Source: Thermoproteota archaeon
Lineage (GTDB): Archaea > Korarchaeota > JAOZGF01 > JAOZFZ01
Reading direction: 5' to 3'
NCBI GenBank assembly: GCA_027492035.1
Contig: JAOZFT010000015.1
Coordinates: forward strand, 9,043-73,042
DNA: 64,000 nt
The position numbers were made by a program, and so were the translations under genes. The notes below the pieces were generated by a model that had not been told where the DNA came from, did no database searches, and worked only from the letters and a program-made list of their open reading frames with translations. How positions within the stretch are numbered: position 1 is the first letter of the stretch; every line of letters begins with the position of its first letter. Shown here in pieces: positions 20,168 to 53,564 of this stretch.

Positions 20168-20184
20168 GTTTTGGAGGTGTTTAA

Positions 20185-21189: not shown

Positions 21190-21323
21190 AAAAGGGTATC
21201 ACCAGGGAAAAATTTTTGAAAAAAGTTTAAAAAAATGCTGCTTCATTCCTTCCTAAAAATATCCTATAATTTTCTCACTCCCTATCTTTTAAGAAGGACC
21301 CTTTAAAGAGCGAGGCTTTTAAA

Positions 21324-33157: not shown

Positions 33158-33158
33158 T

Positions 33159-33779
33159 ATGGTTAAAAGAGAAATTGAAGAGTTCAATATTCTAATTGCA
33201 GGTGTAGGGGGGCAGGGTAACCTTTTATCTTCAGAAATAATAGCCACAGCTGCTGTGAAATCAGGTTTCAAAGTAAGAGTTGCTGATGTTTTCGGCGCTG
33301 CCCAGAGGGGAGGAAGTGTATTGAGCCATATCAGAATAGGTGAAAAAATCTTTAGCCCCGTTATTCCTGAACAAAACGCTAATGTACTTCTCGGTTTTGA
33401 ACCTGTAGAATGCTTGAGGGCCGCAAAGTTTCTTTCACCCACTTGCGTAGCCATCGTTAACTTAAGGCCTATATATCCAAGGGATGTAGCCTTAGGGAAA
33501 TTTAAGTACCCGAGTATCGAGGAAATAATTAATTTATTGAGGGAATTAGCCAATAAAGTTTTATCTAAAGACTTTATCTCCGTAGCAGAGAAGGCAGGGG
33601 ACCCCATGACATTAAATGTCACAATGGTTGGGGCTTTAGCCAGTTTAAAAACTTTACCGATTGAGAAAGAAACTTTGCTGGAAGCTGTTAAAGAAGTTGT
33701 TCCTCCAAAAACCAAAGAAATGAACATTAGGGCCTTCAAAATGGGTTATGATGAAACACTTAAAATCTTAAAGCCTTAA
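33159..33779 (+). CDS. iorB: Indolepyruvate:ferredoxin oxidoreductase beta subunit (IorB)
   Basis: 206 aa; FNILIAGVGGQG motif of the 2-oxoacid oxidoreductase gamma/IorB family; start 2 nt after iorA stop. Confidence 0.8.
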   Translation: MVKREIEEFNILIAGVGGQGNLLSSEIIATAAVKSGFKVRVADVFGAAQRGGSVLSHIRIGEKIFSPVIPEQNANVLLGFEPVECLRAAKFLSPTCVAIVNLRPIYPRDVALGKFKYPSIEEIINLLRELANKVLSKDFISVAEKAGDPMTLNVTMVGALASLKTLPIEKETLLEAVKEVVPPKTKEMNIRAFKMGYDETLKILKP

Positions 33780-33795
33780 GCCCTTTTTCGATTTT

Positions 33796-35331: not shown

Positions 35332-35358
35332 CTTTCTCCTAAAAAATGTGATCGTAAA

Positions 35359-36744
35359 GTGACGCATTACAACCAGTTACTGCAGCAAGAAATAAGGAAA
35401 TATAGGGAGAAAACAAGGAAATCAAGGAATCTTAATAACTTAGCACGGAGTCTCCTCCCGGGAGGAGACACAAGAACCGTAACTTACTTTAAACCTTATC
35501 CTCTTTATGTGAGAGAGGGATCAGGATACTTGGTTTGTGATGTTGACGGTAACAAATACATTGATTTCCTTAACAACTACACTTCACTGGTGCACGGCCA
35601 CCGTCACCCTAAAATTGTTGAGGCAATCAATAACCAACTTACCCATTTACAAGCAGTTCATGCCCCCACAGAAAAACAAATCGAGCTTGCTAAATTGATT
35701 TGTGAAAGATTTCCTTCAGTTGAAATGGTTAGGTTTATGAATTCAGGTACTGAAGCTACAATGAACGCTATAAGACTTGCAAGAGCTTATACAGGGAAAA
35801 AGAAAATAATGAAAGCTGAGGGGGGTTACCATGGAACCCATGACTTTGCAATGATAAGTGTGCATCCTCCTTCGGAGAAGTATGGCTCTCTAAACAACCC
35901 TGAATCTGTTCCAGAGGATAAAGGGATACCTAAAGCTGTACTCAAAAACGTTATAGTCTTCCCCTTCAACAATTTCGAAGTCACTGAGAAATTAATAAAG
36001 AGAAACAAGGAAGAGTTGGCAGCTTTAATAGTTGAACCTATAATGGGAACAGCAGGCATAATACCACCTGTAAAAGATTATTTAAAATTTCTCAGAGAAA
36101 TAACAATTGACAATGACGTTTTATTGGTTTTCGATGAAGTAATTACTGCCAGACTAAGTAAGGGAGGTGCTCAGGAATATTTTAAGGTAGAACCTGACTT
36201 AACAGCCTCAGGGAAAATGTTCGGTGGCGGAACCCCTATTGGCTTAGTTGGAGGAAAGGAAGAAATTATGCAACTTTACTCCCCTGAGAGGAAAGAATTC
36301 TTATCTCAATCAGGAACTTTTAACGCAAACCCTGTAACCATGGCCGCAGGTGTTGCAACACTTAAACTGTTAACAACCCAAGCTATAAAGAAAATAAACT
36401 CTTTAGGAGGATTCTTAAAGAAAAGAATTTCCAACTTATTTAGTGAATTTAGTGTTCAAATTAAGGTTACAGGTGTAGGCTCCCTCTTAAATATTCATTT
36501 CACAAATAAAGAAGTTTTAGATTACAGGAGTTCCTTAACAGCTGACAAGGATCTCCACTTCCTACTTTACTTATCTTTACTCAACAGGGGAATCTGGATA
36601 GCCCCAAGATTAATGGCTAACATTTCCACTCCCATGTCTAACAGGGAAACTGAAAAATTCCTTAAAACTTTAGGGGAAGTCTTAGTTTCTATTAAACCTG
36701 CAATTGAAGAGAAAGCTCCCCACTTAATAAACAAAGAAATGTAG
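35359..36744 (+). CDS. Class III PLP-dependent aminotransferase/aminomutase (GSA-aminomutase/GABA-aminotransferase-like), paralog of 11767..13074
   Basis: 461 aa; LPGGDTR, DVDGNKYIDF, LLVFDEVITA, and TASGKMFGGG containing the PLP lysine; GTG start. Confidence 0.8.
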   Translation: MTHYNQLLQQEIRKYREKTRKSRNLNNLARSLLPGGDTRTVTYFKPYPLYVREGSGYLVCDVDGNKYIDFLNNYTSLVHGHRHPKIVEAINNQLTHLQAVHAPTEKQIELAKLICERFPSVEMVRFMNSGTEATMNAIRLARAYTGKKKIMKAEGGYHGTHDFAMISVHPPSEKYGSLNNPESVPEDKGIPKAVLKNVIVFPFNNFEVTEKLIKRNKEELAALIVEPIMGTAGIIPPVKDYLKFLREITIDNDVLLVFDEVITARLSKGGAQEYFKVEPDLTASGKMFGGGTPIGLVGGKEEIMQLYSPERKEFLSQSGTFNANPVTMAAGVATLKLLTTQAIKKINSLGGFLKKRISNLFSEFSVQIKVTGVGSLLNIHFTNKEVLDYRSSLTADKDLHFLLYLSLLNRGIWIAPRLMANISTPMSNRETEKFLKTLGEVLVSIKPAIEEKAPHLINKEM

Positions 36745-36817: not shown

Positions 36818-37720
36818 TTAGGATATTCTGTATCTGGGATGGCTTTTTGGAAGTTTAATCTTTTCCTCTATTAACAATTGGCCGAAGGAAGCATCTACCA
36901 AACTTATTGCTGGGAACATGTATTCTGCGTCTCTTAATGGGCCGTACAATATGAAATCAGCTCCTAAAGCTGTGGGAAGTATACATGAAGAAGCTGTAGA
37001 AGCTATTACTCCTTCTTGGCTTATTTTCTTCTTCAACCCTTTCCACTGACTTACTGCATTATGGGCTCCGCAGCCGGCTGGAACACCGAATTTATCCTTT
37101 ATTTCAAATAAAGCCTTTGTAGCCATTCCAAGAGTTGGTATGTCCAGTACTGTTGTGTCTACCAGAATGTTTTCTAATCCAAGTTCCTCAGCCTTCTTTA
37201 TTAATTCCCCAGCTACTTCAACTCTTCCTTTTGAGGAAATTATTGCTTTCATTCCGTAAGTTAGTAACACTGCACTTTTTAAACCAACCTCTTTCACTTT
37301 GTTTAAAACAACTTCTTTTGTTTCTGGAGTTATTGAGTTCAGAATTATTCTAGACAACAAACCTGTTTCGTTTGAATACTCTAACCCTTCAACCATTGTT
37401 TCATTACTTAATCCATCTAAAAGCAAAGGAACATCTGAATTGTTAGCTGTGAAATCTAAAAATTTTTTCATAGCCTCAGGAGTTGTCCCTACAACATCCA
37501 GCATTAAAGGTAAACCTGTTAAATCAGACATTTCCAAGGCTTTACTTAACTCTTCCCCGGCTTCTTCTTCATTAAACACTCCCTTGTCAGGGTCATTAAC
37601 TACCCTATGTCCTCTGTAAAAGATACTTCCTATTAACACTGTCGGATTCTCCCCAGGATTTCCCCCCAACTTGATGCCTCCTATTTCAACAATTTTTTGT
37701 TTAGCTTTAAATTTCCACAT
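36818..37720 (-). CDS. mtrH: MtrH-like methyl-corrinoid:tetrahydromethanopterin/tetrahydrofolate methyltransferase
   Basis: 300 aa; GGNPGENPTVLIGSIFYRGHRVV ... LPLMLDVVGTTPEA ... DVPLLLDG ... GADFILYGP match the MtrH family blocks (GGQPGEYPT.L.GTIFY ..., LYGPI). Confidence 0.75.
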   Translation of the reverse strand: MWKFKAKQKIVEIGGIKLGGNPGENPTVLIGSIFYRGHRVVNDPDKGVFNEEEAGEELSKALEMSDLTGLPLMLDVVGTTPEAMKKFLDFTANNSDVPLLLDGLSNETMVEGLEYSNETGLLSRIILNSITPETKEVVLNKVKEVGLKSAVLLTYGMKAIISSKGRVEVAGELIKKAEELGLENILVDTTVLDIPTLGMATKALFEIKDKFGVPAGCGAHNAVSQWKGLKKKISQEGVIASTASSCILPTALGADFILYGPLRDAEYMFPAISLVDASFGQLLIEEKIKLPKSHPRYRIS

Positions 37721-37860
37721 CCAAAAACCCCTCTTCTACTCTTTCACTAAGTGAAGGAGAAAGTAAAGATTGAACCTAAAAAAACAAATACAGTTCTTTT
37801 TTTAGAAAAACTTTAGGAAGGTGCTGTTGCGAAAAAAGGTAAAAAAGCTAAAGAATTAAT

Positions 37861-39318
37861 TTAGTGAACAACTTCTTTAGCTGCACTTTTGATCACTTTG
37901 TCTATTTCATCTACTACATCCTTGGGTAAAGGTGTAACTTCGTGTTCCTTCAATATTTTTCTGGCTTTCTCTCTAGCCTTCTTCGTCAAGTCTTTGCCTC
38001 CTTCACTTATCCACTTCCTCCAAGAGGATTTGCTTAATAGATCAGTTAGGTAATGTTCCTGTTTAAAAAGTTTCCTTGTGTGTTTAAGGCTTAAATAACT
38101 TCCTGCATGACCTGCTTCCTTTATAGCTTCAACTGCTAAAGTTTCTTCATTTACTTCAACTCCCTGCAACAATCTTTTAATCATCCCTATTAATTCATCA
38201 CAAATCACAATGAAATCAGCGCTGCACAGCAAACCTGAGTCCATGTAGCCTATATCATGGATAAGGTTTTGGCCACTTAAAGCAGCTGCTGCTATATAAA
38301 GCGCCGCTTCAGCAGCTGCTTGTGCATCAGTTAATTTAGAATCTGTACACCCTGTAGTTCCCCAAAGGGGAATATCGTAGTAGTGAGACATCTGGGCGAG
38401 CATGACAGCCATCAATAAAGTTGACGCTGTTGTATAAGAAGTTACAGCGTATTTCATATCTAGAACCAAAGGCACCCCACCGTAAATGAAGGGGGTACCT
38501 GGGTTTAACAATTGAATTATAACGTTTCCTCCCAAGGATTCGGCGCTTGTTTGAACCACTGAACCTGCAAGAGTGACAGGGGCAGTTGCCCCGCTTTGTG
38601 TGCAAGGGGCCCAAACAATTGGCAATCCCTTCTTAACCCATTCAAATAATGCCTCAATGTAATCCCTGCCGAAAATTAATGGGGATTGTGGTTCATCGTA
38701 TAAGGTAACTATTGGTTTCCTTCTCAGTTCTTCTTCACCCCCGGCTACGAGTTCAGCTATTTTTATTTGCAGTTTCGTTAACTCTGCACCATGGTAACTG
38801 TACATTACAAAATGTTTTTCGGTATTAAGCAGTACAGCTTTTTCTTCATATAACCCCATTAAGCCAGAAGGAGCGTCGCTAGCTGTACCTGAACCCATTG
38901 CAAAGTCAATATTTTCTAATGCATCCCCTAACCTAGTTAGTTCCTCCATGTCCTTGAATGTGCACCTTCTCCTTTCACCTGTTTCAAGGTCTAAAACATA
39001 GGTTTGACCGCTTCCTGTACCAAAATATGTCCTTAACCCTTCAAGAACAAAGTCGTATTTTGGGTTCCTACCGTATAACCTAATTGTTTTGGGGGCCTTT
39101 TTAATTGATTCTTCAACTAAGTACTGAGGTATCTTAGCGATTTTAGTTTTAAAATCAACGTCAGCTCCTGCATCCTTAAGGAGTTTTAAAGCCCCTTCAT
39201 GTTCAATTTTTATTCCGTGCTGTTCCAGAACTTTCAACACTGCCAAATGTATATCGTATATTTGGTCATTAGTTAAAATTTTGAGCTGCCCCCCCTTTAA
39301 TCCACCCCTCATTCTCAT
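37861..39318 (-). CDS. MttB-superfamily methyltransferase (non-pyrrolysine), paralog 2
   Basis: 485 aa uninterrupted ORF, about 50-60% identical over long blocks to paralogs 1 and 3; no in-frame TAG; stop overlaps the corrinoid gene start by 4 nt. Confidence 0.85.
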   Translation of the reverse strand: MRMRGGLKGGQLKILTNDQIYDIHLAVLKVLEQHGIKIEHEGALKLLKDAGADVDFKTKIAKIPQYLVEESIKKAPKTIRLYGRNPKYDFVLEGLRTYFGTGSGQTYVLDLETGERRRCTFKDMEELTRLGDALENIDFAMGSGTASDAPSGLMGLYEEKAVLLNTEKHFVMYSYHGAELTKLQIKIAELVAGGEEELRRKPIVTLYDEPQSPLIFGRDYIEALFEWVKKGLPIVWAPCTQSGATAPVTLAGSVVQTSAESLGGNVIIQLLNPGTPFIYGGVPLVLDMKYAVTSYTTASTLLMAVMLAQMSHYYDIPLWGTTGCTDSKLTDAQAAAEAALYIAAAALSGQNLIHDIGYMDSGLLCSADFIVICDELIGMIKRLLQGVEVNEETLAVEAIKEAGHAGSYLSLKHTRKLFKQEHYLTDLLSKSSWRKWISEGGKDLTKKAREKARKILKEHEVTPLPKDVVDEIDKVIKSAAKEVVH

Positions 39319-39971
39319 CCCTTCCCAATTAACCTTTTAGCTACTTCAACTGCTTCTGTAGCATCTGCTCCATGTCCATCAGCCCCTATTTCCTCAGCCC
39401 ATTCAGGACTTGTAGGGGCTCCTCCAACTATAACTTTGTACTTATCCCTTAACCCCCTCTTTTTAAGTTCCTCGATGAGTTTCTTCTGGACAGGCATTGT
39501 AGTGGTTAATAATGCAGAGGCACCTATTATGTCAGCACCGTTTTCTTCAGCTGCTTTAATGAAGTTTTCAGGAGGTTGGTCGTTGCCTATCTGAATCACC
39601 CTGAAACCTGCTGCCTGAAGCATTGAAGCAACTATCCTCTGCCCTATATCATGTATATCCCCCTCAACTGTACCTATCACAATTGTTCCTACGTATTCAG
39701 CTTTCTCCTTTGATTTCTCCAATGCAGGCCTCAAAACAGTCATAACACTGTTCATAACCTCAGCTGACCCAACTAAATCCATCAAAAATATTTCTCCCCT
39801 CCCAAACTTATCCCCTATCTCTTTCAATTTTTTTGATAATGCATTCACAAGTTCAACAGGGCTCATGCCACGTTTTTCAAGTAATTCCTTAGCTAACTCG
39901 TCAGCACCCTCCGGTTCAGCTTCATCAAGTCTCTTCAACAACTCGTTAAGCACATCTTCTTTAGTGGACAC
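39315..39971 (-). CDS. Corrinoid (B12-binding) protein, MttC/MtbC/MtgC-like
   Basis: 218 aa; B12-binding-N helical cap plus Rossmann B12-binding domain with the DxHxxG motif (GDIHDIGQRIV). Confidence 0.85.
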   Translation of the reverse strand: MSTKEDVLNELLKRLDEAEPEGADELAKELLEKRGMSPVELVNALSKKLKEIGDKFGRGEIFLMDLVGSAEVMNSVMTVLRPALEKSKEKAEYVGTIVIGTVEGDIHDIGQRIVASMLQAAGFRVIQIGNDQPPENFIKAAEENGADIIGASALLTTTMPVQKKLIEELKKRGLRDKYKVIVGGAPTSPEWAEEIGADGHGADATEAVEVAKRLIGKG

Positions 39972-44621: not shown

Positions 44622-45890
44622 ATGAATTACGACGCCGTAGTGGTTGGGGCAGGTGTCCTCGGTTTATCTACAGCTTACCACATCAAATTAGAAAATCCAG
44701 CTGAAAAAGTTTTGTTAATTGATAAGAACCCTGGGCCTGGACAAGGAAATTCAGGTAAATCAGCTGAATGTTTCCGAAACATTTTCTACTCTGAAATTAA
44801 TACTTTGTTAGCAGATACATCTATTGATTTCTTTTTCCATGTTCAGTATGAAAAGGGGTTTGACTTGGGTATACGCAAGGTGGGTTATCTTTTCCTGACA
44901 GCTGAAGAGGAACTGAAGCTTTTCAAAAAGGAGCACATAAAGAAAGGCCAGGTTAAGGTTTATGAAAGAGAAGACCTCAAGAAACTTCTTAAATTAAACC
45001 TAAACGTTGAAAAAGATAAAGAAGCCCAAATGCTTAATCTTAAAAACATCCAGAAAGGGTTTCAAATAATCAAAGCAGGTTACTTAAGTGTAAGCAAATT
45101 AATTGAGTTCTATGAATCAGAATTCAAGAGACTTGGAGGTGAAACACTTTACCGTACAAAAGTTAAAAAGTTGCTTATGAAACCTAAAGAAGAACTCAAT
45201 ATCATAGGTGAACCCCACATTTGGCAGGATGCAGAAGTAGTTGGTGTTGAAACTGAAAAAGGGAAAATTTACGCAAAAAAGACAATAGTAGCTACTGGTG
45301 CTTGGAGCAACACTTTACTTCACCCAGTAGGTCTAGAAACATATATGAACCCTAAGAAAAGGCAACTTTTTGTTTTGAAAGCTAAAACAAAAGAATTAAA
45401 AGATTTACTTTACTCGAAAGGGTTCAATAAAGAAGGAATACTTCCTTTCACCATTTTACCAAAACCTCTAATTTGGATGAGGGCAACAATGGAGGAGAAC
45501 ACCTTCTGGATAGGGTGTGCAGATGAAATAGGTAGAAGTTTCAAACTTGAAGACGACCCTAAACCGGAAAAATACTTCTATATTTACGGAATAAGGCCTG
45601 TGCTTGAAAAATACTTTCCCCAATTCACAAACCAGGAACCTTTAAACATGTGGGCTGGTCAGTACGCAGTGAATTCCTATGACGGATGCCCAATAGTGTA
45701 TGAAGAGAGTGGTGTTATTTATTTAACAAGTGCAACTGATAGGGGGATACAGATTTCTCCTTCCCTGGGAAAAATTGCTTCAGCTGTTTACTTCGGTGAA
45801 GAGTATGCTGAACTGTTTGGGGGCAGGAAATTTAAAGTAAGTGATGTAGGTATCAGAAAAAGGAAAATTGAGTATGAGCTAGTGCTTTGA
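44622..45890 (+). CDS. FAD-dependent oxidoreductase, DAO family, paralog B
   Basis: 422 aa; VVVGAGVLGLSTAYHI motif; collinear similarity to 21324..22610 including the shared C-terminal GGRKFKVSD. Confidence 0.75.
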   Translation: MNYDAVVVGAGVLGLSTAYHIKLENPAEKVLLIDKNPGPGQGNSGKSAECFRNIFYSEINTLLADTSIDFFFHVQYEKGFDLGIRKVGYLFLTAEEELKLFKKEHIKKGQVKVYEREDLKKLLKLNLNVEKDKEAQMLNLKNIQKGFQIIKAGYLSVSKLIEFYESEFKRLGGETLYRTKVKKLLMKPKEELNIIGEPHIWQDAEVVGVETEKGKIYAKKTIVATGAWSNTLLHPVGLETYMNPKKRQLFVLKAKTKELKDLLYSKGFNKEGILPFTILPKPLIWMRATMEENTFWIGCADEIGRSFKLEDDPKPEKYFYIYGIRPVLEKYFPQFTNQEPLNMWAGQYAVNSYDGCPIVYEESGVIYLTSATDRGIQISPSLGKIASAVYFGEEYAELFGGRKFKVSDVGIRKRKIEYELVL

Positions 45891-45918: not shown

Positions 45919-47385
45919 TTAGTTTTTGGATGTAACTTTGGCTATTTCTCTGGCCTGCTTTAGTATTTCTTCAACTCTTTCCCTTGTTTCAGCCGGTAAA
46001 GGTTCTATTTCATGTTCCTTCAATATTTTTAAGGCTTTCTCCCTTGTTCTTTTAACTATATCTTTAGCTCCAAGTTTCATCCACATACTGTATGAAAAAC
46101 TTCTATCCAACAATTCATTAATGAAATGTTCCTCCTTAAAGTATTTCCTTGTATGTTTAAGCTTTAAGAAGTTTCCAGCATGTCCAGCTTCCATTATTTC
46201 GTTTACAGCAAGTCTTTCCTCATCCACCTTTATTCCTTTCATGAAAAGCTTAGTTTCACCTATTACCTCATCCGCAAAAACCAGTATCTCATGGGAAGTT
46301 GTAATTGCTGAGTCAATATAGCCTATGTCATGAATGAGGTTTTGGCCTCCGAGAGCCGCAACCATTAAGTTCCTTGTTGCCTCAGCAAAAGCTTGTCCGT
46401 CAAGCACCCGTGAATCTGAACATCCACCAGTACCCCACATCGGGATTCTTAAATAATGACAAAGCTGAGCTTGTGCTGTTCCAAGCATCAAATCCTCAAT
46501 TGCTCCATAAGAGGTAACTGTCGTCCTCATATCCATAACCATAGGTACAAAACCGAAAATGAAAGGGGTGCCAGGGTTTATAAGTTGAGCTAAAACGTTT
46601 CCACCTATGGATTCCGCCATTCCTTGAACAATTGAACCAGCTAAAGTTACAGGGGCTGTTGCACCAGTGATTGGGCAAGGGGCGAAAACAACAGGTAACC
46701 CCCTCTTAACCCATTCAATCAAAGCTTCTACATAGATTTCGCCGTAAACTAACGGGGATTGCGGTTCATCATACATGGAAACTATGGCTCTCCTTTTTAA
46801 CTCCTCTTCACCACCCGCCACTTCTTCAGCTATTTTAATCATTAGTTTAGTCAATTCTGCACCATGGTAAGCGAAAACAATTGAGTGCTTCACTGTATTG
46901 GACATTATTGCATATTGTTCATAGAGGCCTTGAACCTCTGTCGGAACATCAAAAGGAGTAGCTAAACCCATTGCGTAATCAATGTTCGGTAACGCATCTG
47001 ATAATTTAGCTGTGTTCGCTACGTCTTGAAGGTTGGTTTTTCTTCTTTCACCTGTTTCAAGGTCTATTATATGGGTTGTTCCACTGCTTGTGCCAAAAAA
47101 AACTTTCCTGCCTTCAATAATAAAATCTTGCTCTTTACTTCTTCCACAAAGCCTAACTCTCCTCGGTGCCTTCCTTAATGACTCCTTAACCAAATACTCT
47201 GGGAATTTAACTACTTTACTTTTATAATCAACTATTGCACCTGCATCTTCAAGTAGTTTAAGAGCTTTGTCATGCTCTATTTTAACTCCATGCATTTCTA
47301 AAACGTTAAGGATAGCGTAATAAATGTCTTCTATTTGTTCCTTGGATAAAATTTTCAACTGTCCCCCCTTTAATCCTTTCCTCAT
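45919..47385 (-). CDS. MttB-superfamily methyltransferase (non-pyrrolysine), paralog 3
   Basis: 488 aa uninterrupted ORF; conserved blocks shared with paralogs 1 and 2 (GLKGGQLKILS, AGGEEELKRR, GATAPVTLAGS, LAVNEI). Confidence 0.85.
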   Translation of the reverse strand: MRKGLKGGQLKILSKEQIEDIYYAILNVLEMHGVKIEHDKALKLLEDAGAIVDYKSKVVKFPEYLVKESLRKAPRRVRLCGRSKEQDFIIEGRKVFFGTSSGTTHIIDLETGERRKTNLQDVANTAKLSDALPNIDYAMGLATPFDVPTEVQGLYEQYAIMSNTVKHSIVFAYHGAELTKLMIKIAEEVAGGEEELKRRAIVSMYDEPQSPLVYGEIYVEALIEWVKRGLPVVFAPCPITGATAPVTLAGSIVQGMAESIGGNVLAQLINPGTPFIFGFVPMVMDMRTTVTSYGAIEDLMLGTAQAQLCHYLRIPMWGTGGCSDSRVLDGQAFAEATRNLMVAALGGQNLIHDIGYIDSAITTSHEILVFADEVIGETKLFMKGIKVDEERLAVNEIMEAGHAGNFLKLKHTRKYFKEEHFINELLDRSFSYSMWMKLGAKDIVKRTREKALKILKEHEIEPLPAETRERVEEILKQAREIAKVTSKN

Positions 47386-47558
47386 TTAACTCATCACCTT
47401 ACGTTTTACACGTATTGAAACCTGTTTCAAGTTTTTAAATTTTTTATTGATAATGTTTTACTTTTACCCTGTTTTAAAATAAATATTTTTGAAGAATGAT
47501 TTCTTAGTTTTGGGTTCCTTAGTTATGTAGGGCTGAAAGTGAAACTCTTTTCGAAAAA

Positions 47559-48179
47559 TTAACAGAGCAAAACTAACCCAACTCTGACGATTTTGTCCTT
47601 AGTTGGAAAACTAATAGGTGCCCCTGCTCTTTTGCATGTTTCTACGACATCTATTCCTAGAGCCTCCATTGAGGGCCTAGCCATGAAAGGTTTTGAACAG
47701 AAGGGGGTCCCTTTCTTGAGGTTGCATTCCTTACATAATCTACACTGCCCTGAAGTTAATCCTGCAGCAAATCTGTAACCCATTTGGAAAGCTAAAGCCT
47801 CAACTTTAGAAACTACTTCATAAAGCTTCATTGCACTTGGTGCAACTACTGCTTCATAACCCTTTTCAGAATACGCTTCTGCCAGGTTGCTTTTACCTTC
47901 TATAACTTTGTTTTTCGGGATCTTATCAGTAAGTTTTATAAGAATAGCAACTCGATATTTTTTCAAAACCTTTTTGAACTCTGGTAAAGAGGGTACATAG
48001 GGTGGACACATTAAATTGGTGTTGTAGTTTGGGCAAAGTGGAACTATACACTTAAATTTTACCCTTTCATCTAACACTATATCCTTTGTTGGTATTATTT
48101 TACAGAAGGAAGCACCTGACTCTTTAGCTTTTTCGCATAACCTGTTAAAAGCTGCATCCTCAGCTTTCTTTTCAATCAT
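47559..48179 (-). CDS. Cys-rich putative metal-binding protein (possibly DUF2284-like)
   Basis: 206 aa with clustered cysteines: FCKIIP...KFKCIVPLCPNYNTNLMCPP and CRLCKECNLKKGTPFC; last gene of the corrinoid/MtmB-like/AAA-VWA array. Confidence 0.45.
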   Translation of the reverse strand: MIEKKAEDAAFNRLCEKAKESGASFCKIIPTKDIVLDERVKFKCIVPLCPNYNTNLMCPPYVPSLPEFKKVLKKYRVAILIKLTDKIPKNKVIEGKSNLAEAYSEKGYEAVVAPSAMKLYEVVSKVEALAFQMGYRFAAGLTSGQCRLCKECNLKKGTPFCSKPFMARPSMEALGIDVVETCKRAGAPISFPTKDKIVRVGLVLLC

Positions 48180-48190
48180 AGAAACACTTT

Positions 48191-50083
48191 CTAAATTATT
48201 TCGGCTACTTTATATGGTAACTCATTGAAATTGTCAAGGAAAGTGTAGTTTCCATTTGTGGCCTTTGACAAGTCTTTACAAAGATCTACACTTTCTTTTC
48301 TTCCACCTCCAATTCCTACCTGTACAACATTTAGTTTATCAAATTTTTTAGCCACATGTCTTGGATCTTCCCCTCTCGTAACCCAACCATCCGTTATGAG
48401 GATTCCTAATTTTTCACTTATATCTGCTCTTATGTTGGCTTCATCTAACTCATCTAAACCCTTCTTTAAAGCCGTTTCTATGTTTGTCAACCCGCCTGTT
48501 TTTAAATTCAAAATTTTCCTTATCACTTCAGTTAGTTCTTCCTGTTCAAACACAGATTTTACCACTTCAGGTTTATCCTTAAAAGATATAACTGAGCAGT
48601 AATCATCTTTAAATTTAATAAGTAACGTAGCTGCTGCAATAGCTGTCAAAACTATTTTTTCCCTTTGCATGGAATTGCTTGTATCCAGCATCACAGCCAC
48701 TCCAACTTTCCTCGGAATTTTCTGCATACACACTATGTCTTGGTAATCAATCACTTTTTTACCTATTAAGTTTTCAAAGGTTAAATCTTCATCTATTTCT
48801 TCCAATCCAGGAACAAATTCACTTCTTTCTTTACGTACTCTTCTAATCCTTTTTCCAGCTATTCTATGAGCAATCTCTAAAACCATTTTTATAATTAAAT
48901 CCTCGATTTTCCTTTTTGTTACCGCATCTAAAGCTCTTTCACTAAGTAAAGAATAAATTTTTATAACTGGCCATTCATAACCTTCTTTTTCAGCTTTCAA
49001 AACCAAATTTAAAACTTCATCATCACTTAATTTCTCAATAAAACCCGGTTTTTCAATTGCTTCCTTAACAGCTTCAATTATTTTTGTGTTCCGTTCCCGG
49101 AAAGAAACCCCTTGTTTTTTCCTATTTTCCACAATGTTTTGTCCTTGTTTAAGTTTATTGCTATTGACTCCCCAGTTTTCATTTTTAGGTGTGAAGGGGT
49201 TACTACCCCAGTTAAGTTCTTTAAGAACAGAATAGACTATTTCTTTTATTATCTCGCTCAATTTCTTTTCCGTCTTACCTATTAAAGCAACTTTTGTGTA
49301 CATTGCTGAAACAGCTAAGTTTACGATTAGTTCAGGGTTTAAGTCAGGGTTTCTTCTATTTTTCACTAGTTCGACAAAATCTACAGCTCCCCTAATTGAG
49401 GCTCCATGTCTAAATTCAGGATGGACCCTTGTTTTTCTCATAATCTTGACAGCAAGTGTAAGTACTTTTCGGTCTTCGAACCCTGTTTCCTTCCTGACAA
49501 TATCTATTTCCTCTTCTTCGCTTTGGTAACTTAACCCTATCCACACGAATCGGTCTCTAAGTGCTTCACTTAACCTGCTTGTGCCAACGTACTCTTGGGG
49601 ATTTTGTGTAGCTATAACCAGAAAACCTTCCTTAGCCTTTATTACACCTATTTTTGGAATGATAATTTGTTTTTCATCCATTGCAGGAAGCAAAACATTC
49701 TGTGTTCCCTCAGGCATTCTGTTAAGTTCATTTATGAAAAGAACACCACCCTCTATCATTGCTTGAGTCAAGGGGCCTGGTATGAAGGACTTCCAGCTGT
49801 ACCCTTTAGATAAGACAATTGGAGGATCAAACCAACCTGTTAATTTGTGTTCAGTGTACCTTTCATCGCCATCCACCCGGTAAATTTTTCTCCCTAAGAA
49901 ATTGGCTACAGCTGCAGCTAAAGTTGTTTTCCCTATACCTACAGGGCCTTCAAGTAAAACATGTTTATTTGAAAGTGCAGCATTTAAGATGTTTTTCAGT
50001 TCCTCTTCTCTACCAATAATCCTATATTTCCTCTTTATCTTCTTTATGGCTTCCTCTAAATTGAACATTAGACTTCCCTGCAA
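48191..50083 (-). CDS. MoxR-type AAA+ ATPase fused to a C-terminal von Willebrand factor A (VWA) domain
   Basis: N-terminal MoxR/ChlI-like AAA (GPVGIGKTTLA, FINELNR, sensor region); C-terminal VWA with MIDAS motif VMLDTSNSM; 630 aa. Confidence 0.75.
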   Translation of the reverse strand: MQGSLMFNLEEAIKKIKRKYRIIGREEELKNILNAALSNKHVLLEGPVGIGKTTLAAAVANFLGRKIYRVDGDERYTEHKLTGWFDPPIVLSKGYSWKSFIPGPLTQAMIEGGVLFINELNRMPEGTQNVLLPAMDEKQIIIPKIGVIKAKEGFLVIATQNPQEYVGTSRLSEALRDRFVWIGLSYQSEEEEIDIVRKETGFEDRKVLTLAVKIMRKTRVHPEFRHGASIRGAVDFVELVKNRRNPDLNPELIVNLAVSAMYTKVALIGKTEKKLSEIIKEIVYSVLKELNWGSNPFTPKNENWGVNSNKLKQGQNIVENRKKQGVSFRERNTKIIEAVKEAIEKPGFIEKLSDDEVLNLVLKAEKEGYEWPVIKIYSLLSERALDAVTKRKIEDLIIKMVLEIAHRIAGKRIRRVRKERSEFVPGLEEIDEDLTFENLIGKKVIDYQDIVCMQKIPRKVGVAVMLDTSNSMQREKIVLTAIAAATLLIKFKDDYCSVISFKDKPEVVKSVFEQEELTEVIRKILNLKTGGLTNIETALKKGLDELDEANIRADISEKLGILITDGWVTRGEDPRHVAKKFDKLNVVQVGIGGGRKESVDLCKDLSKATNGNYTFLDNFNELPYKVAEII

Positions 50084-50138
50084 AAATGATTAGTAAGTAC
50101 TAAGTTGCTAATGCTTCTTTAAAAAAAGAGGAAGGTAT

Positions 50139-51524
50139 TTATTTGTACCACTCTATTCCGATATCACTTAACTCCCTTTTAACTGATTCATATATTTTAA
50201 TGTAACTTTTTGCGGGTTTCACCCTCTTTATGTCATAGCATTCTTGGAATTTTTTACCTAAGGGGGCGTTCTTGATTTTGTCACTATATTTCTTCAAAAT
50301 CTCTTTCACGATAACGTTTGCATCTGTTCTTTTCATTCCCAATACTGAATACGCTATTTCAGCCGCAAATTTAGGTTCTAAAGGTGTGAAATAATCTTCA
50401 TGCTTGTTTTTAGCCACCCCTACTGCCTCTATGTGGCCGCCGGAAACAATTGGTGAAATTACTGACGCAGCGGTTTCGTAGAGAACCATGTCAGTATGAG
50501 GCCCTGCAGCCACATACACCAAAGGAATGGTTAAAAAGTTTGTGTTAAGGCTTACAGCTTGGGTGTAGACCGAATTTACCCAGATCAAGTCAGGGGTTGT
50601 GTTACAGACGTGCCATATGTGTAGAGGGAAGGGGCTGAAATAAACAGCTTTAAAAACAAGGCTTCCTAAAAAGTGATGTGCAACTGTTGAAACAGCTGAC
50701 CCTTCAGGTCCTCCAGCGTATCCACCAACCATTGGGGAGAAGTCGATGTCAATGGGTGCACCAAAGGACATTATGGTACATGCTTTGTTTAATCTGTCAA
50801 AATCAACTTTCATAGGATCAAGAACCCCTATCATGAACCCATCTGACTGCCTTAGTCCATATTTTGGATGTAAAGCAGCTGCGAGAGAAACAGCTGATTC
50901 AGCTGTCGAAAGGGTGTTCATGATAGGTATACCAGGTCTTCCAACTCTTCTCATTCCTTCTCTAGCTAAAACAGCATTTCTTATAGCTCCCAAAACCTCT
51001 AAAGGTGACCTGGGTCTAATTCTCATTCCATTCACATTAGTTAAAGCAGGGGTGGTGATAGAGTTTGTTTCAGGTATAGAGGCATACCCTTCCATCAATG
51101 CTAGAAATATAGCTTCAGAAGATACTGGCCCACCTGCTGCACCTAAGAAGCACCATGGAGACTGTTTATCTTCAGGTTTTCTAGGCATCAATGCTTTTCT
51201 ATCGTTTCCTTCTCCGAAATAAACCTTTTTTGGGGCTTTTCTCAATTCTTCCTTAACTTCCTCCTCACTAAACTTTATTACTCTACCAGTGTCAACACAA
51301 TAGGCACCTGTTTCAACAAAGAATTCAAAAGCTGCATTAAAAACGTCTTTAGCCAAGCCGTTATCAGCTGGAACCAGTTCTTCACCGTCATACTTTATGT
51401 CATACTCCTTTACCTTCTCTCTTAAGTTTTTTGAATAAATTCTTAGTTCATAATCTCTTGGAAGTACAGGTTTACCTGTTAAAGCTTTCTCCATCACATC
51501 TAAAAACGTAACCAATTCTATCAC
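50139..51524 (-). CDS. MtmB-like methyltransferase (monomethylamine methyltransferase family homolog without pyrrolysine codon)
   Basis: 461 aa uninterrupted ORF. ETGAYCVDTGRVIKFSEEEV matches MtmB ECGIYCTDTHRIVKYTEDEI, GRPGIPIMNTLS matches GRPGMGV(Pyl)GPETS, and C-terminal GKKFQECYDIKRVKPAKSYIKIYE matches GKTFQECYDVKTVTPTEEYMQVYD. Sits 4 nt downstream of a corrinoid protein gene. Confidence 0.75.
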   Translation of the reverse strand: MIELVTFLDVMEKALTGKPVLPRDYELRIYSKNLREKVKEYDIKYDGEELVPADNGLAKDVFNAAFEFFVETGAYCVDTGRVIKFSEEEVKEELRKAPKKVYFGEGNDRKALMPRKPEDKQSPWCFLGAAGGPVSSEAIFLALMEGYASIPETNSITTPALTNVNGMRIRPRSPLEVLGAIRNAVLAREGMRRVGRPGIPIMNTLSTAESAVSLAAALHPKYGLRQSDGFMIGVLDPMKVDFDRLNKACTIMSFGAPIDIDFSPMVGGYAGGPEGSAVSTVAHHFLGSLVFKAVYFSPFPLHIWHVCNTTPDLIWVNSVYTQAVSLNTNFLTIPLVYVAAGPHTDMVLYETAASVISPIVSGGHIEAVGVAKNKHEDYFTPLEPKFAAEIAYSVLGMKRTDANVIVKEILKKYSDKIKNAPLGKKFQECYDIKRVKPAKSYIKIYESVKRELSDIGIEWYK

Positions 51525-51528
51525 TTCC

Positions 51529-52194
51529 TCACTTCTTCTTTTTTTCTAAAAGAGTAGCCGCCACTTTAACTGCATCCGTTGCAGTTTCTCCATACCCATC
51601 CGCGCCTATTTGTTCAGCCCATTCTGGAGTTGTTGGTCCTCCTCCAACTAAGACTATATATTTCTCTCTTACTCCTTGGGCCTTTAAGTATTCAATAACA
51701 TCTTTTTGTCCGCCAATGGTTGAGGACATTAAAGCTGAAACAGCTATTATATTTGCCCCGAATTTCTCTGCTTCTGTGTAAAATTTAGCTGCTGGAACAT
51801 CCACCCCTAAATCCAAAACATCGAAACCGTTAACTTTCAGCATTGTTGCCACTACATTTTTTCCTAATTCATGAATATCTCCCATCACTGTACCAATTAC
51901 GACTTTACCCTTCTTCTCCTCAAGTTTTGCAGTTTTAGGTATATGGGGAAGCAATATTTTCAAGGCCTTATCCATAGCTTCACCAGCCATCATCAAATCT
52001 GTTAAGAATATTTCCATTTTTTCAAATTTTTCCCCTACAATTTTCATTCCTTCAGCCAGTCCCTTCTCTATTGCTTCTAAAGGATTAATGTTTGCTTTAA
52101 TTATTTCCTTGGATAAATTAACTACCTCATCTTCATCTATTTCAATAATAGCCTTCTTTAACTTGTCAATTAGCTCAGCGCCCTTATTACTCAT
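51529..52194 (-). CDS. Corrinoid (B12-binding) protein, MtmC-like
   Basis: 221 aa; B12-binding cap plus DxHxxG motif (GDIHELGKNVV). Confidence 0.85.
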   Translation of the reverse strand: MSNKGAELIDKLKKAIIEIDEDEVVNLSKEIIKANINPLEAIEKGLAEGMKIVGEKFEKMEIFLTDLMMAGEAMDKALKILLPHIPKTAKLEEKKGKVVIGTVMGDIHELGKNVVATMLKVNGFDVLDLGVDVPAAKFYTEAEKFGANIIAVSALMSSTIGGQKDVIEYLKAQGVREKYIVLVGGGPTTPEWAEQIGADGYGETATDAVKVAATLLEKKKK

Positions 52195-52434
52195 TTACTC
52201 TTTCACCTCTCGGGTTCCCCCCTCCTGTAAAAATTTTAAATAATTGATGTTATTTTAGGAATAAGTGCCAAAAAATATTTTTAAATTTAACTTTTTTCTC
52301 TCTCCTAAGGATCAGTTAAGAAGATTTCTGGAAGAATCTTAATTGGAGGGTAGCCGTGAAAATTAAAGAATAGAAATTGAAGGGAAAAACTTAATTAAGA
52401 CAACTTCTGCATTTCCCCCAATTTTTTGCTTTTT

Positions 52435-53340
52435 GTTTTTAAACTATGTTTTCCATGCCTTTAAGGTCATAGAGAATTAAGTTCAGGTTTTCAATTTTTA
52501 TTTTTTCTTTTCCTTGGATTTCTCTTGTTATTAAGCAATAGGTTTTCTCTTTTATTTCAATTTCTTCAGCTTTGGCTTTAAGTTTTTTCAGGATTCTTAT
52601 TGTTTCTAACGGTTTCAGGACCCCTCATTTTACCTCTGCCAATATTGCTTTATCTTTGGATTTGTTAATGGCTAACAAATTTATTTCAGCAGGATTTCCT
52701 CTTTTTGTTTTCCACCATTACCCCCAATCTTGGTTATTGTGAAAGATAGATTCCTGTTCTCTAAAAGAAACTTTTTTAGCTACTTCCTTGAAAATCTGTC
52801 TCATATAATGCGAGTATCCCCTCTTAATATTCTTTAAAAGGCCCCCTCCCCTATTAAGTCCTTATTTGGATAATGTAACGGAACCAGAAATTGAAGTAAT
52901 TATCTTTGAGTTTGTAGAGCCTTTTCTTAGCGACTGGTTTTTCTAGAACAGGGGTTTCATAAGAAACTATCTCTAAGGTTCGGAGTGTTTCTAGATAACG
53001 TGTAACAGCAGCTCTGTCCAGGCCTGTTGTTTCAGCTATTTCATTCACTTTTCTTCAGCCTTCAGCCACAGCCTTAAATATCAACTTGTAATTCCTTGTT
53101 TCCCTTAACTCTTGTCTGAGAAGATTTTCAGCTTCTTCATACGGCTCCCCTCAAGAGAAGCCTATCTACATTCTCCCAAAATGTGAGATTTGGTTTTAAC
53201 TTAACTAAATATGCAGATATTCCCCCCATGGAACCGTATACACGCAAAAACATCTGAGTAACTATATCCAAGCACAAATTCCCTTGTAGCTTACGTTGTT
53301 CTTGTCTTGATTTTCTTCTTCATCCACCAATTTACGTAAC
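52435..53340 (-). pseudogene. Degraded remnant of an archaeal ATPase/DUF234-type (HTH plus FWF-motif) gene
   Basis: Minus-strand fragments with family-like sequence: GEPYEEAENLLRQELRETRNYKLIFKAVAEG, then an in-frame TGA, then VNEIAETTGLDRAAVTRYLETLRTLEIV...YKLKDNYFNFWFRYI (DUF234-like FWFR motif), then a separate fragment ...ILKKLKAKAEEIEIKEKTYCLITREIQGKEKIKIENLNLILYDLKGMENIV. No intact long ORF on either strand. Confidence 0.4.
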
Positions 53341-53564
53341 ATGTGTCACGATAATTATTTTAAACTATTTTACTAAATTATTAACAGTATTAGCGAGAAA
53401 AGGTAAGTAAAAGAAATGAAAAGGTTTGATAGAGGATGGGTCGTAATTATTTAAAGGATTTTTTTAAAATAAATTTTTTAAATCTAAATGGAGGATTGCG
53501 TCCTTAATTTTTCAGAAAAAGTGTTGTAGAGGTTTTTAAATTGAAAAAGTTGAAAGGGAGAAGG

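Follow-up and report, generated by a model that had tools for sequence, protein, structure and literature searches.

The window analysed here is a stretch of 64 kb of DNA from a Thermoproteota archaeon, and five co-directional ORFs were confirmed on its minus strand in the run 52194-45919, as the first-pass annotation had described. A corrinoid protein of the MtxC type (51529..52194, 221 aa) is followed by a non-pyrrolysine (non-Pyl) MtmB-family methyltransferase (50139..51524, 461 aa, GTG start), a fusion of a MoxR-class AAA+ (AAA_5) module with a VWA/MIDAS domain (AAA-VWA, 48191..50083, 630 aa from TTG), a DUF2284 protein (47559..48179, 206 aa) and a non-Pyl MttB-superfamily methyltransferase (45919..47385, 488 aa), and the domains previously assigned to all five proteins agreed with Pfam and NCBIfam. 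The intergenic gaps along the run were 4, 55, 11 and 173 bp; three of them were as annotated before, but the third had been given as 12 bp. In the NCBI annotation AAA-VWA starts at the ATG at 50068, which gives a protein of 625 aa and a gap of 70 bp instead of 55 bp to the MtmB homologue. The MttB homologue probably has its own promoter, predicted from the sequence of the AT-rich 173-bp spacer. The order corrinoid-MtmB-AAA/VWA-DUF2284 was found again in a second Thermoproteota MAG (locus L006), whose AAA-VWA is 72% identical, and the arrangement is thus not unique to the window.

The corrinoid protein contains the Pfam domains B12-binding_2 and B12-binding, scored 220.3 bits with the NCBIfam model for methyltransferase-cognate proteins TIGR02370 (cut-off, 215.3 bits), and carries in its translation the B12-binding motifs DxHxxG (as DIHELG), SxL (SAL) and GG (GGG). 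Its gene was located directly upstream of the MtmB homologue every time in L001, L003, L006 and L070. The MtmB homologue was covered over its whole length by PF05369 (327.5 bits) and was aligned with M. barkeri MtmB (1L2Q) at 216 bits with Met opposite Pyl202. No in-frame stop or UAG codon was found in either methyltransferase ORF, in agreement with the earlier description of an MtmB homologue free of an amber codon, and because of this and the Met at the Pyl position the protein was classed as non-Pyl and rejected as a monomethylamine methyltransferase; on its sequence it is a candidate substrate:corrinoid methyltransferase (MT1). Only one non-Pyl MtmB homologue has been characterised, MtqB, whose substrates are tetramethylammonium and choline (PMC13044021). 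The MttB homologue (PF06253, MTTB, 304 bits) scored 430.8 bits with the TIGR02369 equivalog (cut-off, 525 bits) and was rejected as MttB trimethylamine methyltransferase on this score and the lack of UAG. As judged by its similarities, it belongs to the non-Pyl MttB superfamily in the wider sense; its scores of 222 bits with D. hafniense MtgB and 216 bits with M. barkeri MttB place it equally near to both.

Pfam identified AAA_5 (82.1 bits; cut-off, 22) and VWA (50 bits) in AAA-VWA, which consists of an AAA module (approximately residues 1-290), a disordered linker (294-333), a helical region (334-410) and a VWA domain (415-630). Walker A (GxxGxGKT), sensor 1 (ATQNP), the Arg finger (DRF) and sensor 2 (GASxRG) are present in the window protein and kept in nearly all of 76 homologues. 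Walker B reads LFINELNR instead of the canonical hhhhDE, with Asp replaced by Asn (NE for DE) and the catalytic Glu retained in 75 of the 76 family members. The MIDAS motif (DxSxS...T...D) is intact, and D467, S469, S471, T533 and D565 are invariant. The best Foldseek matches to the AF2 model (pLDDT 80) were NorQ (TMt 0.81-0.86, 24% identity) and CbbQ (0.79) for the AAA module and the NorD VWA (0.53-0.56) for the VWA domain. Pfam, the motifs and Foldseek all upheld the assignment of a MoxR-type AAA fused to VWA/MIDAS, and structurally, according to the model, the protein is a NorQ/NorD- or CbbQ-type remodeller of the MoxR class. It was rejected as a class I chelatase D/T subunit (ChlD/BchD, CobT) by its AAA_5/MoxR domain and by scores far under the chelatase equivalog cut-offs (TIGR02442, 59.7 versus 779.45 bits; TIGR02031, 39 versus 499.55 bits); PF01078 (Mg_chelatase) was aligned with residues 22-64 only, and no ChlH/CobN-type partner gene was seen in the neighbourhoods bearing Pfam calls. 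The cobalt handling suggested at first is therefore not sustained in the chelatase sense of cobalt insertion. In Methanomethylicus and some other lineages AAA and VWA are encoded by separate genes.

The 206-aa protein, noted before for its Cys cluster, belongs to DUF2284 (PF10050, 147 bits; cut-off, 25), a family of approximately 3,600 sequence clusters, and seven Cys residues were invariant among 20 diverse members (C44, C49, C58-PP and C146xxC149xxC152x8C161). Its AlphaFold model has a nitroreductase-like cobalamin-binding fold, and was best matched by the reductive dehalogenases (RdhA) PceA and NpRdhA, QueG and the nitroreductase fold, with CblC also among the matches. The probability obtained by hhalign with E. 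coli QueG was 0.5%, and neither RdhA nor QueG was found in a profile search of the PDB. The protein bears one CxxCxxC motif rather than two ferredoxin-type CxxCxxCxxxCP motifs, and its CxxCxxCx8C is also similar to the site at which alcohol dehydrogenases bind structural Zn. As one part of our best explanation, the Cys residues and the predicted nitroreductase-like fold, by which cobalamin is held in reductive dehalogenases, QueG and CblC, are taken, with reserve, to suggest a redox or metal protein with a Cys cluster. DUF2284 neighbourhoods are heterogeneous for the most part. DUF2284 is nevertheless associated with B12 enzymes in its own right: a B12-related gene (CobA, MeaB, methylmalonyl-CoA mutase or methyltransferase genes) was located within 5 kb in 14 of 46 lineages, bacterial operons of the order MCM-B12 subunit-MeaB-CobA-DUF2284 were among these loci, and DUF2284 was also found beside RACo, MTTB, URO-D or MtrH in loci devoid of AAA-VWA. 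The fusions found were to SAM-dependent methyltransferases, a radical-SAM/SPASM enzyme and a nucleotidyl transferase, and none was to a B12 domain.

The same island holds a second, canonical module (36818..39971, minus strand), in which MtrH (36818-37720), an MttB homologue (37861-39318) and a corrinoid protein (39315-39971) were identified by Pfam; the architecture mtrH-mttB-mttC has been reported in TACK archaea (PMC9723716). MtrH is likely to provide the methyl route to H4MPT/H4F for both modules.

To describe the linkage among relatives, 32 dereplicated Thermoproteota loci with an AAA-VWA homologue were used, and genes for CORR, MTTB, MtmB, URO-D(MT2), MtrH or RACo were counted as linked. 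A linked gene was present within 0.5 kb of AAA-VWA in 15 loci and within 5 kb in 19, the remaining 13 were without a link, and DUF2284 adjoined AAA-VWA in 10 of the 32. The linked loci displayed approximately 10 different gene orders (e.g., CORR-MtmB-AAAVWA-DUF2284; MTTB-LarA-DUF2284-AAAVWA-UROD-RACo; MTTB-AAAVWA with DUF2284 convergent; and, in Methanomethylicus, UROD-AAA-VWA(split)-CORR-thermosome). Linkage of the pair to genes for corrinoid methyltransferases is thus a recurrent feature among archaeal relatives. In the NJ tree the immediate clade of the window comprised nine loci (the window, L006, L008, L001, L007, L012, L047, L003 and L070), every one of them linked, and the sister pair L005/L014 was unlinked. 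Which gene adjoins AAA-VWA differs between loci (MT1, MT2, MtrH or the corrinoid protein); these varying neighbours all have one partner in common, the corrinoid protein. In the Methanomethylicus clusters a thermosome gene comes after the corrinoid gene, which fits a maturation theme.

Outside these loci, no link to corrinoid genes was found in 26 Thermoplasmatota loci, where the AAA-VWA neighbours encode histidine kinase, GNAT, M55 peptidase, arginine decarboxylase and deoxyhypusine synthase, or in four loci from Asgard and other unclassified archaea. The AAA-VWA/DUF2284 adjacency recurs at about 35% identity in Thermoleophilia bacteria, where an AhtL-like molybdopterin oxidoreductase is encoded beside it; in Methylarchaceae the AAA-VWA copies adjoin the Moco-biosynthesis genes MoaA/B/C. 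A dedication of AAA-VWA to corrinoid proteins, as first suggested, hence fits 19 of the 32 Thermoproteota loci but does not hold family-wide.

Taken as a whole, the locus is explained best, although only tentatively, by a NorQD/CbbQO-like remodeller and a redox metalloprotein that serve as a module in the maturation or repair of corrinoid proteins. With the same caution, the region may be regarded as an island for corrinoid-dependent methyl transfer in a Thermoproteota archaeon that is not a methanogen. The two helper genes would probably contribute to maintaining the carrier protein for B12 in a loaded or active state. The corrinoid protein and the neighbouring non-Pyl MtmB homologue would act as a substrate:corrinoid methyltransferase pair, the MttB homologue as a second substrate-specific methyltransferase, and MtrH, 8 kb off, would hand the methyl group to the pterin. 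The accessory pair would comprise DUF2284 and a single-chain NorQ/NorD- or CbbQ/CbbO-like MoxR AAA+ remodeller with the VWA/MIDAS domain as its client-binding adaptor. Driven by ATP, the AAA ring might pull on the corrinoid protein or its complex via the MIDAS contact and open the B12-binding domain, so that corrinoid could be inserted, exchanged or re-reduced, while DUF2284 might hold, process or reduce the corrinoid, and the module would act beside RACo/RamA-type reductive activases, not instead of them. The identities of the domains, the integrity of the motifs, the matching folds and the recurring linkage are observations, whereas we infer which protein is the client, in which direction the reaction runs and what DUF2284 binds, which may be Fe-S or corrinoid. 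Classical methylamine systems have been reconstituted in vitro with MT1, corrinoid protein, MT2 and RamA alone (PMC13044021), and AAA-VWA/DUF2284 is therefore not generally required. Because the Thermoleophilia and Methylarchaceae copies adjoin Mo-enzyme or Moco genes, the module may be a generic metalloenzyme chaperone.

A bolder form of this explanation, which we consider rather unlikely, is that DUF2284 is an Fe-S-bearing CblC counterpart handling free corrinoid and AAA-VWA the first AAA+ corrinoid-protein loader/activase. DUF2284 would then be a so far unrecognised B12-handling protein of prokaryotes that binds corrinoid on its nitroreductase-like fold and processes or reduces it, AAA-VWA would open MtxC-type proteins at the expense of ATP so that their cofactor could be inserted or exchanged, and together they would constitute a cofactor-trafficking route for the corrinoid methyltransferases of Bathyarchaeia, Methanomethylicia and relatives, with DUF2284 alone serving the bacterial adenosyltransferase/MeaB/mutase operons.

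No RACo/RamA homologue was detected by phmmer with a bona fide RACo query in the 64-kb window, a result that bears out the claimed absence of a RamA/RACE-type activator from the window and says nothing of the genome, and none was found in the recovered flank beyond the window start. Fer2/Fer4, Raco_middle and RACo_C_ter (ASKHA) domains were absent from all five proteins by Pfam, and the identification of any of them as a RamA/RACo/RACE activase was rejected. The first-pass annotation had suggested that the module could take over from such activases; in this reading, DUF2284 would give low-potential electrons and the AAA+ motor would distort the corrinoid protein for Co(II) reduction in an ATP-dependent manner. 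The plausible Fe-S motif of DUF2284, the intact ATPase motifs of the AAA module, the position of DUF2284 beside CobA adenosyltransferases, whose reaction needs reduction of Co(II) to Co(I), and its fusion to a radical-SAM enzyme, likewise reductant-dependent, are consistent with such a replacement. However, RACo-type genes were located within 10 kb of AAA-VWA in 8 of the 32 Thermoproteota loci, all 8 of them among the 19 with a methyltransferase link (in L001 within the same co-directional run, in L047 at 42 bp), and in L108 DUF2284 directly adjoins RACo. Since the activases share clusters with the module in these loci, replacement is improbable, and the two look complementary rather than equivalent. 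In addition, most Methanomethylicus clusters with split AAA and VWA are without DUF2284, and we know of no MoxR/VWA system that mediates electron transfer.

Just as improbable is a general-purpose MoxR chaperone with no corrinoid tie, placed here by the density of methyltransferase genes or by vertically inherited synteny. The unrelated housekeeping contexts of the Thermoplasmatota copies and the 13 unlinked Thermoproteota loci agree with it, and the four MT1 genes in the window alone make for a high local background, but the adjacency within 0.5 kb was spread over Bathyarchaeia, Methanomethylicia, Nitrososphaerales and the window's own lineage, whereas, by rough estimate, a gene picked at random from a genome carrying a few dozen genes of this kind would have a chance of a few per cent; the many rearranged orders, in fused and split forms, are not explained by inherited synteny. 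Least probable is maturation of another nearby client (MT1 TIM-barrel enzymes, the zinc site of a URO-D-type MT2, or a Mo/W-pterin enzyme, cf. CoxD/CoxE), which accords with the Thermoleophilia and Methylarchaceae contexts, a Mo-oxidoreductase/NrfD/Fer4 cluster 4 kb from AAA-VWA in L086, URO-D directly preceding AAA and VWA in Methanomethylicus and an aldehyde:ferredoxin oxidoreductase gene in the window (AFOR, 25222-27069, Pfam), but AFOR is more than 20 kb from AAA-VWA with many unrelated genes between, the linked loci with Pfam-called neighbours (L001-L004) were devoid of Mo-enzyme genes, and the methyltransferase component beside AAA-VWA varies by locus while the corrinoid protein stays.

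As for how corrinoid proteins of methylotrophic pathways gain, maintain and recover their cofactor, only the reductive step (RamA/RACo) is understood. Bathyarchaeia, Methanomethylicia and related archaea carry very many non-Pyl MttB/MtmB paralogues, and through these they influence how methylated amines are turned over in sediments and hot springs. A conserved ATP-dependent remodeller with a B12-linked metalloprotein is a cloneable candidate for the missing maturation or repair step, which might be required for heterologous reconstitution of non-Pyl methyltransferases. The link of DUF2284 to CobA, MeaB and methylmalonyl-CoA mutase, together with the RdhA/QueG/CblC fold match, offers a testable function for a family without an assigned role.

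With the mtrH-mttB-mttC and MtqB/MtqC clusters the locus shares its standard parts, i.e., corrinoid protein, non-Pyl MtmB and MttB homologues and MtrH (PMC9723716; PMC13044021), whereas an AAA-VWA gene is mentioned in neither paper, and neither was among the results of a full-text literature search for DUF2284. No description of AAA-VWA/DUF2284 with corrinoid methyltransferases was found in the literature searched, as expected from the earlier claim of an undescribed methylotrophy operon architecture. Like RamA/RACo/RACE (COG3894), the pair includes an ATP-using accessory protein inside corrinoid methyltransferase clusters, and the client may be shared, but no domains are in common, RACo being composed of Fer2/Fer4, Raco_middle and an ASKHA ATPase. 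ChlD/BchD and CobT/CobS have AAA, flexible linker and VWA/MIDAS in the same order as the AF2 model of AAA-VWA, whose AAA is of the AAA_5/MoxR type and whose Pfam-called neighbourhoods are without ChlH/CobN.

DUF2284 is likened to RdhA (PceA, NpRdhA), QueG and CblC/MMACHC by its predicted nitroreductase fold, with no detectable sequence homology. Like RdhA and QueG it has a region with a Cys cluster after the fold, but the protein carries one CxxCxxC..C motif and three further Cys instead of two ferredoxin-type motifs, and it is about 200 aa long, without a catalytic extension. Its place in the bacterial MCM-MeaB-CobA-DUF2284 operon corresponds to that of CblC in the human B12 trafficking pathway.

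NorQ/NorD, which inserts FeB into cNOR, and CbbQ/CbbO, the Rubisco activase, belong to the CGN subgroup of MoxR AAA+ proteins with a VWA partner. AAA-VWA shares with them the MoxR motifs and MIDAS, the superposition of its AAA on NorQ/CbbQ and of its VWA on NorD, and a gene position beside a metallo- or cofactor enzyme. It differs from them in the NE of Walker B in place of DE, in client genes that are corrinoid methyltransferase components, with DUF2284 as an extra partner, and in the AAA and VWA on a single chain, which would give six VWA domains per hexamer as compared with one in NorQ/NorD- and CbbQ/CbbO-type complexes.

The five minus-strand genes at 45919-52194 of this hydrothermal Thermoproteota MAG were all recovered as co-directional ORFs at the positions of the first-pass annotation, and its domain assignments were borne out for every product by Pfam and NCBIfam; its spacings of 4, 55 and 173 bp stood, and the third was corrected from 12 to 11 bp. 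The corrinoid protein is of the methyltransferase-cognate type (TIGR02370, 220 bits, over the cut-off; DxHxxG present), the MtmB-family protein was matched by Pfam along its full length (327 bits), the product of 48191-50083, for which the NCBI start is an ATG five codons further in (625 aa), is an AAA_5 and VWA fusion (AAA-VWA), and the 206-aa Cys-cluster protein (47559-48179) was assigned to DUF2284 (PF10050, 147 bits). The MttB-like protein scored 304 bits against the MTTB family and 431 bits against the true-TMA equivalog, under its cut-off of 525, and was as close to D. hafniense MtgB as to M. barkeri MttB. The MtmB-like gene, described as free of an amber codon, was indeed an ORF without in-frame stop, as was the MttB-like gene, and the pyrrolysine of M. 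barkeri MtmB was aligned with Met. MtqB, the sole non-Pyl MtmB homologue of demonstrated function, has tetramethylammonium and choline as substrates (PMC13044021).

The best-supported reading of the first four genes is an operon-like unit consisting of a corrinoid protein/MT1 (substrate:corrinoid methyltransferase) pair and an accessory pair, AAA-VWA and DUF2284; the same order is repeated in the nearest other genome (locus L006), with 72% identity between the AAA-VWA proteins. TATA-like AT-rich sequence and Shine-Dalgarno-like motifs were located upstream of both the corrinoid and the MttB gene, and the latter therefore probably has its own promoter. No structured RNA or riboswitch was matched at the gathering score of Rfam across the whole window. 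The only Rfam hit was a sub-threshold match to PYLIS_3, the pyrrolysine insertion element of mttB, at 46323-46422 (-) (32 bits where the gathering score is 38; E 0.0012), inside the non-Pyl MttB-like CDS at about codons 322-355, the UAG site of true MttB, and it probably stems from conservation of the coding sequence, not from a functional element. The 1.3 kb ahead of the corrinoid gene (52195-53540) is devoid of any ORF longer than 64 aa, as is also the case in a sister assembly; the 64-aa ORF at 52854-53048 (-), which contains TGLDRAAVTRYLETLRTLEIV, resembles a remnant of a winged-helix regulator.

Homologues of AAA-VWA (38-73% identity) were plentiful in uncultured Bathyarchaeia, Methanomethylicia, Nitrososphaerales/'Methylarchaceae', Thermoplasmata and some bacteria, and the only annotations among those with names were 'AAA family ATPase', 'AAA domain-containing protein', 'MoxR-like ATPase' (with or without 'Mg-chelatase subunit ChlD') or 'GvpN'. 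Across the family (n=76), Walker A, sensor 1 ATQNP, Arg finger DRF, sensor 2 GASxRG and a complete MIDAS (DxSxS..T..D) were conserved, and Walker B was hhhNE(L/M)NR, with Asn for the canonical Asp in 75 of the 76 (window protein and homologues of loci L001-L089). In the AF2 model (pLDDT 80), residues 1-290 form the AAA module and 415-630 the VWA domain; between them are a disordered linker (294-333) and a helical region (334-410). In Foldseek, NorQ was the top match (TMt 0.81-0.86), followed by CbbQ (0.79), and the VWA part was matched to that of NorD (0.53-0.56); by sequence profile, the best PDB matches were midasin AAA domains, the MoxR protein 2R44 and NorQ. From these fold matches, AAA-VWA is predicted to be a single-chain remodeller of the NorQ/NorD and CbbQ/CbbO type. 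A chelatase subunit was rejected, equivalog scores being far under cut-offs and no CobN or ChlH being found in the Pfam-annotated neighbourhoods. An anti-phage MoxR-VWA conflict system was likewise rejected, and the protein is not a PADLOC defence protein (trivial P-loop matches only; bpMoxR 16.9 bits versus a cut-off of 27).

Gene neighbourhoods were examined at AAA-VWA-anchored loci (80 genome loci plus metagenome loci), with neighbours scored using the window's own proteins and bona fide RACo (a corrinoid reductive activase). The linkage to methyltransferase genes proposed earlier recurred in Thermoproteota (dereplicated, n=32), where a methyltransferase-pathway gene lay within 0.5 kb at 15 loci and within 5 kb at 19, and DUF2284 within 1 kb at 10; it did not extend to Thermoplasmatota, in which all three counts were 0/26. 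They were also zero in Asgard and other unclassified archaea (n=4), and the Bacteria (n=14) had DUF2284 within 1 kb at five loci and a pathway gene at none at either distance. Gene orders among linked loci varied widely: MTTB-LarA-DUF2284-AAA-VWA-UROD-RACo (L001); corrinoid protein-MTTB, then DUF2284-AAA-VWA-DAO, with RACo-corrinoid protein-UROD just downstream on the opposite strand (L007); MTTB and AAA-VWA 10 bp apart, with a convergent DUF2284 (Methanomethylicia L003, L070); AAA-VWA-MTTB and AAA-VWA beside MtrH (L020, L022); and AAA and VWA as separate genes, with URO-D on one side and a corrinoid gene and then a thermosome gene on the other (Methanomethylicus/Methanosuratincola L058, L059, L067). 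This thermosome gene, which encodes a group II chaperonin (Cpn60_TCP1), lies directly 3' of the corrinoid gene (12524-14257 in L058) and was also observed in L066 and L054. In an NJ tree, the window's immediate clade was linked at 9/9 loci and the sister pair L005/L014 was unlinked.

The persistence of this adjacency across classes despite rearrangement argues for functional coupling of AAA-VWA to corrinoid methyltransferase genes, not inherited synteny, and makes it unlikely that the protein is a generic chaperone placed there by coincidence. Thermoplasmatota homologues are surrounded by housekeeping genes, 'Methylarchaceae' copies adjoin MoaA/B/C, and in the Thermoleophilia locus L055 (3475-14392) the gene for an AhtL-like molybdopterin oxidoreductase comes with that for its Fer4_11 subunit; next are genes for two products (430 and 367 aa) that no Pfam family matches, and after these a fused AAA-VWA, DUF2284 and another AAA and VWA pair, this one split. 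The AhtL-like context, a different, Mo-enzyme setting for the same accessory pair, was also found in L079, L065, L073 and L052. Taken together, these contexts indicate that the family overall is a metalloenzyme-associated remodeller, with dedication to corrinoid methyltransferase clusters limited to some of its clades.

RamA/RACE-type activators had been reported as missing from the window, and RACo/RamA was indeed not found there by phmmer, nor in the flank beyond the window start. The further idea that the accessory pair replaces them is contradicted by how often RACo occurs in these same clusters (within 10 kb at 8/32 Thermoproteota loci; at none in the other three groups), including one within the same co-directional run as AAA-VWA (L001) and one 42 bp away from it (L047), and replacement is accordingly improbable. 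The direct neighbour of AAA-VWA varies by locus between MT1, MT2, MtrH and the corrinoid protein; as the component common to all of these, the corrinoid protein would be the most economical client, and MT1, MT2 or a pterin enzyme as the client instead is very doubtful.

Seven Cys were invariant in 20 diverse DUF2284 members (C44-x4-C49-x8-C58PP and C146-x2-C149-x2-C152-x8-C161). A nitroreductase-like fold holds cobalamin in the B12 enzymes RdhA, QueG and CblC, and the confident AF2 model (pLDDT 91) predicts such a fold for DUF2284, the likeness being at the fold level only (Foldseek probability 0.8-0.99, E at least 2.6e-3 and TM about 0.4 with QueG and RdhA chains; probability about 0.3 with nitroreductases). 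No homology to solved structures was detected by phmmer, hhalign gave no match to E. coli QueG, and a profile search against PDB returned only weak ADH zinc-motif look-alikes (E 0.07); the 4-Cys motif could alternatively be a Zn site. The family (about 3,600 clusters at 50% identity) is mostly stand-alone. Its fusion partners are SAM-dependent methyltransferases (including O-methyltransferase), a radical-SAM/SPASM enzyme and a nucleotidyl transferase, and no B12 domain was fused in the 150 best representatives; these fusions suggest that DUF2284 has an accessory role in redox or metal handling and do not prove corrinoid binding. Surroundings were heterogeneous across 80 DUF2284-anchored metagenome loci (46 lineages after dereplication at 80% identity). 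A B12-related gene lay within 5 kb in 14/46, 9 of them with a CobA/BtuR adenosyltransferase; MCM and/or MeaB occurred in 6 (five full MCM-small subunit-MeaB-CobA-DUF2284 operons, one MeaB and CobA only), and corrinoid-methyltransferase parts (RACo, MTTB, URO-D, MtrH or corrinoid protein) in 6, with an AAA-VWA match in 0/6 of these stretches.

In the mechanism proposed, AAA-VWA would act as an AAA+ remodeller like NorQD/CbbQO and contact the corrinoid protein through its MIDAS domain, DUF2284 would be a metalloprotein holding, processing or reducing the corrinoid, and the two would jointly load, exchange or rescue the cofactor alongside RACo, complementing it. This full mechanism is put forward tentatively; functional coupling as such is held with more confidence.

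By its gene content, the window is a methyl-transfer and amine-catabolism island. Pfam identified two more MTTB paralogues (18701-20167 and 37861-39318), a second corrinoid protein (39315-39971) and MtrH (36818-37720); a proline racemase, two DAO-type flavoproteins, a LarA homologue, a DAP-dehydrogenase-like protein, a class-III aminotransferase and a branched-chain-type ABC binding protein are also encoded. Since no gene for URO-D-type MT2, Mcr or RACo is present in the window, MtrH is likely the acceptor-side methyltransferase. At 18701-22610 (+), the third non-Pyl MTTB paralogue, the proline racemase and a DAO-type flavoprotein are consecutive, a grouping that would suit a module acting on a methylated proline derivative, e.g. 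proline betaine or N-methylproline. LarA-like genes (nickel-pincer racemase family) recur in these islands (window 28702-29985 (-); L001 7972-9279; L074): the L001 copy is between MTTB and DUF2284, and the copy of a Spirochaetota locus is 0.7 kb from split AAA and VWA genes. DAO-family FAD oxidoreductases (sarcosine/dimethylglycine-oxidase-like) are often near DUF2284 and AAA-VWA (window 44622-45890, L007, L003, L087 10205-13521); in L087, DUF2284 is flanked by a DAO gene on each side, with no methyltransferase within the 16 kb stretch. Four consecutive ORFs at 31253-36744 (+), with lengths (634, 206, 511 and 461 aa) near-identical to those of the array, were rejected as a paralogous second array; by Pfam they encode an unrelated 2-oxoacid:ferredoxin oxidoreductase alpha/beta-type fusion with Fer4 (TPP/POR), POR gamma, an HpaB-family enzyme and a class-III aminotransferase, and the resemblance is thus coincidental.

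The literature searched held no description of a function for DUF2284 (COG5423) or of a MoxR/VWA protein in corrinoid methyltransferase systems, in line with the view that the combination is not a described operon architecture. MoxR-VWA maturation systems and nitroreductase-fold proteins are already-known kinds; the client class and the partnership with DUF2284 appear new. The setting of the window MtrH gene agrees with the TACK-archaeal mtrH-mttB-mttC architecture, in which a COG3894 activator is normally alongside (PMC9723716). Unlike in NorQ/NorD and CbbQ/CbbO, AAA and VWA are joined on a single chain in the window protein. In high-GC bacterial contigs (L163, L165, L166, L168, L120, L142), an operon of methylmalonyl-CoA mutase large subunit, B12-binding small subunit, MeaB and CobA/BtuR adenosyltransferase ends in DUF2284; in its order it parallels mitochondrial B12 trafficking in humans, DUF2284 standing where CblC does.
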